Shown piece by piece: positions 8,791 to 13,041 of a stretch of DNA of 64,000 bases. The notes under the pieces were generated by a model that searched no databases, had not been told where the DNA came from, and saw only the letters and a list, made by a program, of their open reading frames with translations. The stretch spans positions 32,001 through 96,000 of the forward strand of contig CAWFAK010000007.1 in NCBI GenBank assembly GCA_963813715.1, in the 5' to 3' direction. This DNA is from an uncultured Planctomycetaceae bacterium (GTDB lineage Bacteria; Planctomycetota; Planctomycetia; Planctomycetales; Planctomycetaceae). Made by a program: the position numbers and the translations under genes. Position 1 is the first letter of the stretch, and every line of letters begins with the position of its first letter.

Positions 8791-9350
8791 GGCAAAGACC
8801 GTTTCTGTTGTGTCGTTTGCACCCAAAAAGCTGAGAGGTTCTTTCCCCGGGTAAGCAGTGTCGTCACGAGGGTGTCGTCACCATCTGGTGGCGGTCATTG
8901 GGAACTCGAGTCAGGCCCCTCCTTCTATTACTTCTTCTCAGGCGACTTTTAACGGCGTTTGTTACGGGGATTGTGGATCGTTCGTCAAATCTGTCAAAAC
9001 TCATTACGAGCCTTTGATTAGCAAACGTCATTCCATTTCCGGGCCATGCGAACGATTCGTCGCATCTCCTTGGTGCCGCGGAGGCACCGTCCGCTCCGGT
9101 CAAATTGCGGACGGGGCCATTTGTGTGCCCAACGGAGCGAAAACGCGCTCAGCCGGATGTCGGCTTGCACCGTGCAAGGCGCGGCTGCGCAAGCCGAGTC
9201 TGCATCGGCCTTAGGATGAAGCACGTCTCGCGATCGCGCTGTCCGGCGGGGACTCAACCTGATTGCCGGCTGCTTGATCGCGGCAGCAGCCGCTCGCATG
9301 ATAGGCCGCTGGCCGCCCCCCGATTGACGCCCCATTTCGAGCGAAGAGAC

Positions 9351-10904
9351 ATGCTGTTTTCTCGCCCCGGTCAGACAACTTACACCGTCGCACTTGTGCT
9401 CGTTTTGACTGCAGCGATCGCGTCGCGCGCGACAGCGACCTCGCCTACTGCCCTAGCGCGGCCGAACATCATCTTTATCTTTTCCGACGATCATGCGGCC
9501 CAGGCGATCAGTTGTTACGGCTCGCGGATCAACACGACGCCCAATCTCGATCGCATCGCGGCCGGCGGGATGCGGTTTCGCAACTGCTTTTGCACGAACT
9601 CGATCTGCGGTCCCAGCCGGGCCGTCGTGCTCACCGGCAAGCACAGCCACATCAACGGCTTTCTGGACAACAGCAACTCGCGGTTCAACGGCGCCCAGCA
9701 GACCTTTCCCAAACTTTTTCAAGCGGCCGGATACCAGACGGCCATCGTCGGCAAGTGGCACCTCGTCAGCGATCCGACCGGCTTCGACACGTGGAAAATC
9801 CTGGTCGGCCAGGGAACGTACTACAACCCCGTGCTGATCGAGAACGGCCGCCGCGTCCGCCACGAAGGGTACGTCACGGACATCATCACCGACCTCGCGC
9901 TCGACTTCCTGAAAGGTGGCCGCGACCCGCACAAGCCCTTCGTGCTGATGTATCACCACAAGGCGCCGCATCGCGAATGGGAGCCAGCCCTGCGGCACTT
10001 GCACCTTTTCGACGACGTCGACATTCCCGAGCCGGCGACGCTCTTTGACAACTACAGCGGACGCGGGACGGCGGCCCACGTGCAGCAGATGGAAGTTGTG
10101 CGGGATCTCAACAAGCTCGATCTCAAACTGACCACGCCCAAGGACCTGAACCCGGCCCAACTCGAGCAGTGGAACGCCGCCTACGAGCCCAAGAACCGGG
10201 CTTTCCGCGACGCCCACCTGACCGGCCGCCAACTGGCGCATTGGAAGTACGAGCGTTACATCAAGGACTATCTGCGGTGCGTGGCCGGCATCGACGAGAA
10301 CGTCGGCCGCCTGCTCGATTACCTCGACCAAAGCGGATTGGCGAAGAACACCGTTGTTATTTATTCGTCCGACCAGGGATTTTATTTGGGCGAGCACGGC
10401 TGGTTCGACAAGCGATTCATGTACGAGGAGTCGTTGCGAATGCCGCTCCTCGTCCGCTGGCCCGGCGTGACGCAGCCCGGAACGGTGAGTGACGCGCTCG
10501 TGTCGAATCTCGACTTCGCCGAAACATTCCTGCAGATAGCCGGCCTGCCCGTCCCAGCCGACATGCAGGGACAAAGCCTCGTGCCCGTGCTGACGGGAGA
10601 CGGTGCGACGCCGGCCGACTGGCGGAAGAGCCTCTACTACCACTACTACGAGTACCCGGCCGTGCACATGGTCAATAAGCACGAAGGCGTGCGCACGAGC
10701 CGCTACAAGCTGATCAACTTTTACGAGCTGGGCGAATGGGAGCTGTACGACCTCGAAAAAGATCCGCACGAGATGCACAGCGTCTACGCGGACCCGGCCT
10801 ACGCAACGACCGTCCAGGACCTCAAAACCGAACTCGCGCGACTGCGCGACGTCTATCGAGTCCCTCCCAACAGCGTCGCGAAGCGGCCCCGATCCAGCCA
10901 CTAA
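9351..10904 (+). CDS. Secreted formylglycine-dependent sulfatase (S1 family)
   Basis: Signal peptide, [13 protein letters not shown]-x-P-x-R motif [34 protein letters not shown] and [11 protein letters not shown]. Confidence 0.95.
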
Positions 10905-11031
10905 GGGCTGGCGTTTGGAGACCGGGTGAAGCTATGAGGAGCGGTAAGAGGTAGGCCGAGCCGGTTGGTGGTTGTGCTTGAACGTGGTAAACGGAGTTTG
11001 TTGCAAACCGTTTCCACAAAAGGACACCGCC

Positions 11032-12051
11032 ATGAAATTTGCCGGCTGCGACCTACACAAGCAGACTATCACGATTTGCGTCGTCGACCAATTGCGGCGG
11101 GTCTTGGAGCGTCGGACCGTGCGTTGTGGCGAAGAGCGGAGCATCCTCGCATTTTTCGAGAGGCTCGGGGAGTTCGAGGCTGTCGTGGAAGCGACCGCCA
11201 GCTACGAATGGTTCGTGCGATTGATCGAGCCCGTGGCCCATCGCGTGTTGTTGGCTCACCCCAAGAAGCTGCGTGTGATTGCCGAGAGCACGCGTAAAAG
11301 CGATCGGCTCAACGCGCAAATCCTCGCGGAGTTCCTGGCCTTGGACATGATTCCGACGTCTTACCGGGCGACTCCGCGGCAGCATGAGCATCGACGACTG
11401 GTGCGTCAGCGGGGCGGCATTCAACGGCGATTGACCTCCGTCAAGAACCGTCTGCGCCGCATTCTCTGCGACTACAACGCGGATCGCCCCAGTCTGTTCA
11501 CCGTGGAGGGGTTGGCGTATCTCCCCCAAGTGCCCCTCTCGGGAGCGGATCGGTTCGCCGTGGATCAAATGGTCGAAGAGTTGCACTTCGGGAGGCGTCA
11601 GCTGCTGGCCGTCAACGCCCGGCTGAAGGAGTTCGCCGAGGCGGCGCCGCTCCGCGAGCAGGAAGCGCGGACGCTGTTGCGGACGATCCCCGGAGTGGGC
11701 TTCGTGACCACCGAAGTTGTGCTGGCCGAGCTGGCAGACATTGATCGCTTCGGTTCGCAAAAGCGGGTCGTCGCTTACGCAGGGCTCTCACCGGGTCAAC
11801 GCGAGAGTGCGGGCAAGAGTCGGGAGCTGCACCTGGAGAAGAACGGTTCGACGCTGCTGCGCTCGACGCTGGTCGAAGCCGCCTGGCGGCTGGTTCAGCA
11901 CTCGTTACGTTGGCGTCGGATTTATGAACGATTGAAGTTGCGCGTGCGTGCCAAGAAGGCGATCGTCGCCGTGGCCCGCCGGTTGTTGTGCCTGATGACA
12001 GCGATCTTGAAGACGGGCCAACCCTACTCGCTCAGCCAGCAACCGACTTAA
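11032..12051 (+). CDS. IS110 family transposase/recombinase
   Basis: GCDLHK, VVEAT, KSDRLNA (RuvC-like DEDD with the 4th Asp read as Asn), LRTIPGVG, YAGLSPGQRESAG and AIVAVARRL. Confidence 0.95.
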   Translation: MKFAGCDLHKQTITICVVDQLRRVLERRTVRCGEERSILAFFERLGEFEAVVEATASYEWFVRLIEPVAHRVLLAHPKKLRVIAESTRKSDRLNAQILAEFLALDMIPTSYRATPRQHEHRRLVRQRGGIQRRLTSVKNRLRRILCDYNADRPSLFTVEGLAYLPQVPLSGADRFAVDQMVEELHFGRRQLLAVNARLKEFAEAAPLREQEARTLLRTIPGVGFVTTEVVLAELADIDRFGSQKRVVAYAGLSPGQRESAGKSRELHLEKNGSTLLRSTLVEAAWRLVQHSLRWRRIYERLKLRVRAKKAIVAVARRLLCLMTAILKTGQPYSLSQQPT

Positions 12052-12300
12052 ATCCCTGACCTTGGCAGGAGAGCACAAAACAAAACATCGATCGAAAGCG
12101 CTGCGACGACCCACAGACGACCCCGCCCCCGGCCATGAAGGCGTTCCCTCAAAAGAGCGACCTTCGAAGGGTGAATGGGGCGTCTCTCGAAAGTCGGCTT
12201 CCTGGCGACATCGACGGACCTGTTCCAGACCGTTGGTGATCCCGAATAGATGGTTGAGCGTACCGCATCGCCCAGATCACCACTTCAAACGCAAAAACCA
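12052..12300 (+). ncRNA. Candidate bridge/seek RNA of the IS1111-type element
   Basis: Two stem/internal-loop modules (12115-12185 and 12234-12282) whose loop strands match the element ends and flank. RNA ends and strand are inferred. Confidence 0.6.
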
Positions 12301-12549
12301 ACCCTTGACGCTACCCTTCTCATAGATGGCCGGGGCGCTCCGCTTTGCGGAAGTCCCGGAACATGCAGTAACCTGCTGCGCTGCCAATAAGCAGGCGTCA
12401 CCGGCACTCAATTAACGCGACTGGAGACGCCCACGAAATGACCTTCCGCTGTTTTTTCCGTTTTCAAACGGGGGCTTCCGCTGCGCGAGCGCCCCCGCCA
12501 CCCGCCCGAACGAGAACCTCTAGCGACTGTCTGGTGGCCTATGTTCCCA

Positions 12550-13041
12550 ATGAGCACGCTCATCCTGCCGCTGGTTCTCGCGGCGTCGTTCGCCTGCAGC
12601 GGTTCGGCCAATCTTTGGGTGTACTTTCAGACCAAGCGGTCCAAACCGCACCTCCTTTATCTCGGCGTGTGGATCTTGTGCCTGGTCCCATTCGGTGTCT
12701 CAGCGGGCCTCGCGGACTTTAATGACTCTCCAGCCGTCCGATTCGGCGCCCTGAATCATCAGGTCCAAGAGCTCAAACAGGAATTGATCCGCAAGCAGAG
12801 CCAAGGCACGGGCGATCCGCGGGTGATGAAAGAATCTGCCGAGGGAATCCGGAAGATCGAAAGCTCGCTGGCCACCGAAAAAATGAGTGAACCGATCTTG
12901 CCGCAAGTTCCCTGGAAAGCGGTAGCGGTCGCCAGTCTGATTATCTCCGTGGTCGTCCCGGTCGGCATTTATCTGGTGCGATCCGGACGCCAGCGTCGCG
13001 CTTCGACGGGAAATGGAGTTTCCGATCAGCCGAGGCAATGA
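12550..13041 (+). CDS. Hypothetical membrane protein
   Basis: Two N-terminal hydrophobic segments, a coiled-coil-like middle and a C-terminal TM; no family recognised. Confidence 0.6.
   Translation: MSTLILPLVLAASFACSGSANLWVYFQTKRSKPHLLYLGVWILCLVPFGVSAGLADFNDSPAVRFGALNHQVQELKQELIRKQSQGTGDPRVMKESAEGIRKIESSLATEKMSEPILPQVPWKAVAVASLIISVVVPVGIYLVRSGRQRRASTGNGVSDQPRQ

Follow-up and report, generated by a model that had tools for sequence, protein, structure and literature searches.

A probable bridge/seekRNA gene in the 3′ non-coding end of an IS1111-type insertion sequence from an uncultured Planctomycetaceae bacterium

The genome of an uncultured Planctomycetaceae bacterium (NCBI GenBank assembly GCA_963813715.1) contains an IS1111-type insertion sequence with a long non-coding region downstream of its recombinase gene, and this raises the question whether the 3′ tail encodes the RNA that selects the insertion site of the recombinase. 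The question was here addressed for the copy of the element located in the window, i.e. the whole stretch of 64,000 nucleotides that was analysed (contig CAWFAK010000007.1, positions 32,001 to 96,000 of the forward strand); all coordinates refer to the window and all features named lie on its plus strand. A preliminary description, made from the letters of the window, had proposed an IS1111-type element of the IS110 family whose 3′ non-coding end encodes a structured guide RNA and whose recombination core is GG. Recombinase domains, RNA fold and the covariation of the guides with the flanking DNA bear out the element type and the guide RNA, whereas the core was found to be TG. The 3′ non-coding tail very probably encodes a folded guide RNA directing the insertion site of the recombinase, and a bridge/seekRNA gene at about 12115-12270 is, with high likelihood, the best explanation of this region as a whole.

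The recombinase gene (11032..12051) encodes a protein of 339 aa, in which the domains DEDD_Tnp_IS110 (PF01548, 2.4e-13) and Transposase_20 (PF02371, 5.7e-23) are located at the N-terminus and the C-terminus, respectively. The protein reaches 214.5 bits with the NCBIfam model NF033542 'IS110 family RNA-guided transposase' (cut-off 140), its nearest relatives in the PDB are ISCro4 and IS621 (E about 1e-12), and its identity to plasmid-borne relatives is about 36% at most. The gene is preceded by 103 nt (10929-11031) and followed by 275 nt (12052-12326) of non-coding DNA. A subterminal inverted repeat, CTATGAG (10932..10938), is positioned 3 bases inside the left end and its reverse complement CTCATAG (12319..12325) 1 base inside the right end, both conserved in relatives. 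Such subterminal repeats with short terminal extensions and the longer non-coding part downstream of the gene are the marks of the IS1111 group; the repeat length of 7 bp lies at the low end of the published range of 7-17 bp (PMC11208160). The recombinase thus belongs to the IS110 family and is of the IS1111 type.

The element in the window is one of 8 copies in the genome, which are 98-100% identical. In all eight, the left junction is GGG-TG-AAGC and the right junction ATAGA-TG-GC; taken alone, these are compatible with either GG or TG as the shared dinucleotide. The preliminary description had chosen GG, with an element at 10926-12327, a circle junction ATAGAT-GG-GTGAAG read by ATAGATGG and TCGCCC in a module 2 loop closed by the stem TGGTGATC/GATCACCA, and an unclear role for module 1; under that version GG does flank the element on both sides in 8/8 copies. 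Against it stand the sites without an insertion. The right flank of the window copy is a repetitive extragenic palindrome (REP) hairpin, GCCGGGGCGCTCCGC...GCGGAAGTCCCGG (12329..12360), with 16 short matches elsewhere in the genome, and the site of all 8 copies is GGG-TG-GC(C/T)G(G/A)G(G/C), located in 6/8 in the same REP arm. The REP hairpin pattern was found at 55 genomic places, 6 occupied by the element and 49 unoccupied. GGGTGG precedes the hairpin immediately in 23 of the 49 unoccupied places, and the triplet before TG is GGG in 18 of 27 unoccupied REP-like sites with a match to TGG[CT]NNG. Because unoccupied REPs carry GGGTGG ahead of CCGGGG, GGGTG has to be counted as part of the target. 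Furthermore, the triplet before TG differs from GGG in 7 of 29 left junctions of relatives (GTA, ATT, AAT, AGT twice, CAT and GCG), while TG and the following A are constant. Finally, the copy on contig C8 (L008), which lies outside any REP, corresponds to an empty orthologous site in the sister genome G002, where flanks of 91-92% identity are joined as ...GGC-TG-GCCGAGG, without an indel and with TG present only once; a GG core would require a 3-nt indel at this site. For the window copy itself, the orthologous region in G002 has diverged and contains neither the REP nor the element, so that it is uninformative on the ends.

From the unoccupied REPs, the varying triplet before TG and the G002 empty site it follows that the core is TG, not GG, and that the insertion sequence proper extends from 10929 to 12326 (1398 bp, and 1400 bp if one copy of the core is counted); the earlier ends were two bases off. 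The left target flank (LT) GGG (10924..10926, present in 8/8 copies) is REP target and lies outside the element, followed by the left TG (10927..10928); the right TG is located at 12327..12328, and the loose ends of REP-bearing contigs begin at 12327. TG is found at both junctions in 8/8 copies, and the circle junction is revised to right end ATAGA, TG, left end AAGC. The eight copies and the empty orthologous site show that insertion is site- and orientation-specific and without target duplication beyond the shared core. The version with a GG core, whose remaining evidence is given with the donor side below, is regarded as very improbable. The REP family itself, present at 12329-12360 and at about 35 further genomic places, can be written as GGGTGGC(C/G)GGG-GCGCTCCGC-N3-4-GCGGAAGCCCC(G/C)G and is divided into the subtypes CCGGGG...CCCCGG and CGGGGG...CCCCCG, of which only the first gives a full match to the right guide described below.

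For the analysis of the RNA, one genome per species was scanned with a protein profile, which yielded 80 recombinase loci, and the 3′ ends of 17 non-redundant relatives with recombinases 48-76% identical to that of the window were aligned. RNAalifold predicted 24 pairs in this alignment, 13 of them with compensatory changes; the helices are the outer and inner stems of module 1 and a hairpin TGG-GAC.../...GATC-CCG in module 2. As the preliminary description had suggested, a covariance model of the 3′ region was built, here from the alignment of the 17 relatives. In the own genome the model finds exactly 8 matches, one per copy, and no orphan RNA copies. In 69 loci it gives 48 matches, all downstream of a recombinase gene and on the same strand, including elements with recombinases only about 33-37% identical. 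In 38 aligned RNAs, 93.8% of the paired cells are standard pairs and 16 of the 24 pairs have changed in both partners; covariation scored 0.499, compared with 0.146 in shuffles (0/500 reached the observed value) and at most 0.086 with slid partners.

Module 1 (12115..12185, 71 nt) comprises an outer stem, an internal loop and an inner hairpin. Its stems AGACG/CGTCT, CCCC/GGGG and GAAGG/CCTTC had been named before and, like all strings of the preliminary description, are present in the window at the coordinates given there; they covary across relatives. The scaffold has the form GNCG-A-CCCC-G, about 11 variable bases, the inner hairpin, about 9 variable bases, TGAAT and GGGG-CGNC. In module 2, the conserved hairpin TGG-GAC.../...GATC-CCG (12203..12244) also covaries, with 6 of the 10 pairs of helices 4 and 5 changed on both sides. 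A further hairpin, GAGCG-TAC-CGC... (12256..12269), which is short and lies 3′ of the donor guide, appears at this position in most of the 17 relatives in folds of single sequences. In the G005 relative (L082-L084 and L088), about 200 nt separate the RNA from the right end and an extra G+C-rich palindromic insert follows module 2; its element has about 1608 bp, compared with about 1400 bp in the window.

The variable bases of module 1 read the target. The segment CCCCGGCCAT (12127-12136), noted previously as the reverse complement of 12326-12335, is a real guide segment that covaries with the flanks. The right target guide within it, CCCCGGCCA (12127..12135), pairs with the top strand of TG+GCCGGGG (12327-12335), and the adjoining T12136 is opposite A12326, with which the right end terminates. 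The other strand begins with GGGTG (12169-12173), which equals LT plus core on the top strand and pairs with the bottom strand, and continues with AA, the first two bases of the left end. GGGTGAA (12169..12175) is indeed identical to 10924-10930, but it represents LT GGG, TG and AA rather than a copy of the left end. The preliminary description had found no guide for the left flank and had called the role of module 1 ambiguous; GGGTG is this left guide, and module 1 is unambiguously the target-binding loop.

This assignment was examined by the length of the longest Watson-Crick run that a guide forms with its own junction, in comparison with the junctions of other elements and with permutations. 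Guide strands were taken by alignment-anchored extraction, since an exact search for 'CA', the complement of the core, missed guides with a wobble or lacking a base. L079 and L042, near-duplicates of L078 and L112, respectively, were left out of the counts, as was L075 in the test of all left junctions, for which the automatic motif had chosen the wrong left end; L085 and L077 were retained despite poorly matching sites. Among the 17 relatives, the right target guide reaches a run of 7.65 with the own junction and 3.76 with others, and the left target guide 6.06 and 4.77 (0/10000 permutations each). The guides covary with the flanks also out of sample: for 11 elements used neither for the model nor for the hypothesis, the values of the right guide are 8.55 and 3.73, and for 8 out-of-sample elements those of the left guide are 6.25 and 3.43 (0/20000 each). 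The poor runs of L077 (4) and L085 (3-5) are included. In the own genome, the right guide matches at 9/9 bases in L001, L002, L003 and L005 and at 8/9 in the other four copies.

Individual relatives illustrate how the guide follows the flank. The right guide strand is CCCCAGCCAT in L076 with the right flank TG-GCTGGGG, TCGGGCTTAT in L078 with TA-AGCCCGA, GGCGTGCCA in L080 with TG-GCACGCC, CTTGTCCCAT in L083 with TG-GGACAAG, GCATGGCAT in L138 with TG-CCATGC, and CTCTTTGACG in L097 with TG-TCAAAGAG. On the left, the guide strand varies together with the triplet before TG, e.g. TAAAT (L097), GCGACGGG (L076), GTAGCAT (L090), GGGCA (L116) and CAGTT (L112). In 38/38 RNAs, the left guide continues past the core with A, the base with which the left end invariably begins; since this A never varies, it is uninformative by itself. 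Two of the relatives, L078 and L079 from two Gimesia metagenome-assembled genomes (MAGs), have TA at the right junction and TG at the left junction; their right target guide pairs with TA, both bottom-strand guides read TG, so that donor and target may here differ naturally in their core. In L111, on an Aporhodopirellula contig, CG replaces TG as the core, and both bottom-strand guides read CG.

On the donor side, ATAGATGG (12246-12253) had been described as identical to 12322-12329, which is correct, and it is a real guide segment; the label of right end plus GG core is replaced by right end, TG and the first target base. The left donor guide consists of ATAGATG, equal to right end plus core (12322-12328) and pairing with the bottom strand, and of G12253, which equals base 12329, where the right target flank begins. 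The strand CCG-AATAGATG, likewise right end plus core, is invariant in the 17 close relatives. The base after ATAGATG corresponds to the first base of the right flank (RT1) in 16/17 relatives, in 10/11 elements out of sample and in 26/28 overall (0/20000 permutations); G, C, A and T all occur, and the misses are L085 and L111. The second base after ATAGATG gave no signal with the second flank base RT2, neither in the 17 relatives nor in the out-of-sample set.

As the partner strand, the preliminary description had proposed TCGCCC (12268-12273) pairing with GGGTGA, within the outer stem TGGTGATC (12234-12241)/GATCACCA (12275-12282). All three strings are present, but the 3′ tail does not covary with the flanks (own 5.00, other 5.24, 9610/10000 permutations). 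The stem is part of the minimum free energy (MFE) fold of the single sequence and a similar 7-nt stem occurs in L085 and L105, which speaks for the version with a GG core; a counterpart of at least 7 nt is however found in only 3/17 relatives, and the stem competes with the conserved hairpin TGG-GAC.../...GATC-CCG, which covaries in all. A better candidate for the left-end guide is GGCTTC (12196..12201), which can pair with top-strand GAAGCT (10928-10933, core G plus left end) with a final G-T wobble. The hexamer in front of the conserved TGG varies with the left end (own 3.94, other 3.33, 0/10000 in the relatives; own 4.12, other 3.67 with n=25), for example TTTTCA with AAA in L101 and TTGTCA with ACA in L110.

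Alternatively, module 1 alone could be a short seekRNA, with module 2 serving as a scaffold, as a processing signal or as a right-end-like DNA site for the recombinase, and with the ends recognised by the protein via the subterminal repeats. The short 82-nt seekRNA of ISEc11 is enough for transposition, with the role of the long form left open (PMC11187229), ATAGATG cannot itself covary, being invariant among the close relatives (17/17), and the signal of GGCTTC is weak. The tracking of RT1 by the base after ATAGATG (26/28) would not be shown, however, by a copy of the element's own end; in addition, the guide in L111 is ATAGACG where the core is CG, and the hairpin between the two donor strands covaries as an RNA helix. 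An RNA reduced to module 1 is thus considered unlikely. A more specific proposal, made here tentatively and with clear doubt, is that module 2 is a true donor module whose bottom-strand guide extends one base past the core into the right flank, and so corresponds to the integrated right junction and not to the circle, just as the left target guide enters the left end.

On the basis of the observed ends, core, target, conserved fold and guide-flank covariation, the following mechanism is proposed for a two-module RNA. The RNA would be made and bound by the recombinase, and the module 1 strands CCCCGGCCA, for the top strand of TG+GCCGGGG, and GGGTG, for the bottom strand, would specify the target, a 12-nt site GGG-TG-GCCGGGG at the foot of the REP hairpin. 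In the donor module, ATAGATG(G) would read the bottom strand of right end, core and first target base, and the left end would probably be paired, on its top strand, with GGCTTC. Following the IS621 structures (PMC11208158), we infer that the RNA brings together the REP site and a donor circle composed of right end, TG and left end; recombination of circle and target by strand exchange at the common TG would then leave TG on both sides.

The matches in the tail could also be due to chance or be by-products of REPs and terminal repeats, with the 3′ end merely an untranslated tail or terminator. The genome has 63% G+C, and TGGCCGGGG occurs 191 times in it, compared with about 271 expected by composition. 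In 2000 dinucleotide-preserving shuffles of 12052-12300, however, the 10-nt match was reached in 11, the 8-nt match in 77 and all three matches jointly in none. The window alone is suggestive, so that the case rests on the comparison with relatives, and the out-of-sample covariation of guides and flanks together with the covarying stems makes chance an exceedingly improbable explanation. Several points nevertheless weigh against a guide RNA gene as proposed. The 7-nt match GGGTGAA was reached in 522/2000 shuffles and is not significant alone, and in the window the left guide extends over no more than the core and 3 bases of the flank. Relatedness among the elements is not taken into account by the permutation tests, and the alignment of the 38 RNAs was fitted to the covariance model and consists of related sequences. 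No Rfam family fits the RNA: a search of 10500-12900 (E up to 10) gave GNAS-AS1_1 as the sole match, with 17.7 bits, a gathering score of 45 and E 8.3. For the donor module, no closing stem was found by RNAalifold or by eye between CTTCGAA and GTTGAG, and the signal of GGCTTC is weaker than those of the other guides and mismatched at the core T. Parts of the element occur in 24 public sequencing runs, 18 of them metatranscriptomes of soil, rhizosphere or litter; in the four runs examined as contigs, the contigs cover the element, in X1 and X3 also with its own flanks, which shows the presence of the element in RNA libraries, not its transcription. No RNA ends and no circle or empty-site joints were present in the contigs of these four runs. 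The last of these points is an N at position 94, in the catalytic tetrad of the window copy.

In the alignment of the recombinases, D7, E53, D91 and S259 are invariant. Codon 94 (11311-11313) is AAC, coding for N, in the window copy and codes for D in the 7 other copies; all four examined sequencing runs (4/4) show A>G at 11311. Position 94 is the second D of D-x-x-D, as mapped onto IS621 via spacing and a weak N-terminal alignment with ISCro4. In the Tnp domain, the motif GLSPGQRESAG has S followed by A, not G. In IS621, mutation of any one of the four acidic residues abolished recombination (PMC11208158). Because of the N at the fourth DEDD position, the window copy is probably non-autonomous and relies on intact copies in trans. 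Intact copies are L002, L007 and L008, i.e. 3/8, with D at position 94, and one intact copy with D lies on contig C5; L003-L005 share a frameshift near recombinase residue 209-220 and L006 has an in-frame TGA stop. The guide region is the same as that of the window in five other copies, and L004 and L006 differ by indels.

The right end also contains a -35-like box, TTGACG (12305..12310), 22 bases before the core, and TTGAC is located exactly 22 bases before the core in 17/17 relatives. By analogy with ISEc11 and IS621, TTGAC probably supplies the -35 part of a promoter that circle formation would complete; among the left-end hexamers after the core, no convincing -10 match at normal spacing from the box was found. 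The gene upstream of the element (9105-10904) encodes a sulfatase (Pfam Sulfatase, SGSH_C), and the element begins 20-odd bases past its stop codon.

A comparison with published systems places the element among the IS1111 elements with seekRNAs, i.e. ISEc11, ISPa11, ISKpn4 and ISPst6 (Siddiquee et al. 2024, PMC11187229). These share with the window element a long non-coding region downstream of a DEDD recombinase, subterminal inverted repeats, a top-strand match 5′ of the bottom-strand match with an overlap at the core or insertion point, and natural re-targeting among relatives; TnpEc11 has the same length of 339 aa, and ISPa11 also targets REPs. Module 1 has 71 nt, compared with 82-96 nt for the short seekRNA forms, and modules 1 and 2 together have about 156 nt, compared with 148-172 nt for the long forms (PMC13604230). 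The second half of the long RNA in the window carries end-matching segments, a function that PMC11187229 leaves open. Unlike the published IS1111 elements, the one described here has a Planctomycetaceae MAG as host and GGG-TG-GCCGGGG as target.

The IS621 bridge RNA (Durrant et al. 2024, PMC11208160; Hiraizumi et al. 2024, PMC11208158) likewise has two modules, in each of which one strand pairs with left half-site plus core on the bottom strand and the other with the right half-site on the top strand, and a core dinucleotide common to donor and target. In both systems, the right-flank guide has one more base pairing with the last base of the donor in a handshake-like manner, and the right end contains a -35 box by which a promoter at the junction could be completed. 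In contrast to IS621, the RNA is located in the right and not in the left end, the order of the loop strands is reversed, the core is TG instead of CT, and the donor module is not a simple internal loop. Past the core, the donor guide base in the window matches the target flank, whereas the bottom-strand guides of IS621 pair with their own DNA (PMC11208158). ISPpu9 and ISPpu10 of Pseudomonas putida (Pares-Guillen et al. 2025, PMC12288879) are IS110-family elements that resemble the one in the window by several copies at one REP position and by the same dinucleotide at both ends. ISPpu9 differs in belonging to the IS110 group without subterminal repeats, and its small RNA Ssr9 is dispensable and self-moving, while the 8 model matches of the RNA described here all lie within the 8 elements. 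A literature search with IS1111, 'bridge RNA' and Planctomycetes gave, among the matches listed, no paper with the third term.

The RNA in the window is a well-supported but ordinary example of the IS1111 seekRNA/bridge RNA kind described in 2024, and its biology is not new. RNA-guided IS110/IS1111 recombinases are under development as genome-insertion tools, and the clade supplies a compact 339-aa enzyme of G+C-rich soil Planctomycetes together with a guide code that can be read, a covariance model and over a dozen relatives re-targeted in nature, some with recombinases only about 33-37% identical. For annotation, the lesson is that an apparent 'left end' such as GGGTG can be target DNA, and that one orthologous empty site resolves such an ambiguity. 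The relatives also provide a comparative handle on the role of the second half of the long IS1111 RNA. If the reading of the extra base of the donor guide is true, it would suggest either a 'handshake' on the bottom strand or an RNA adapted to recognising excision substrates; it would give the long seekRNA a role and would fit the reported need of IS1111 donors for both target halves.

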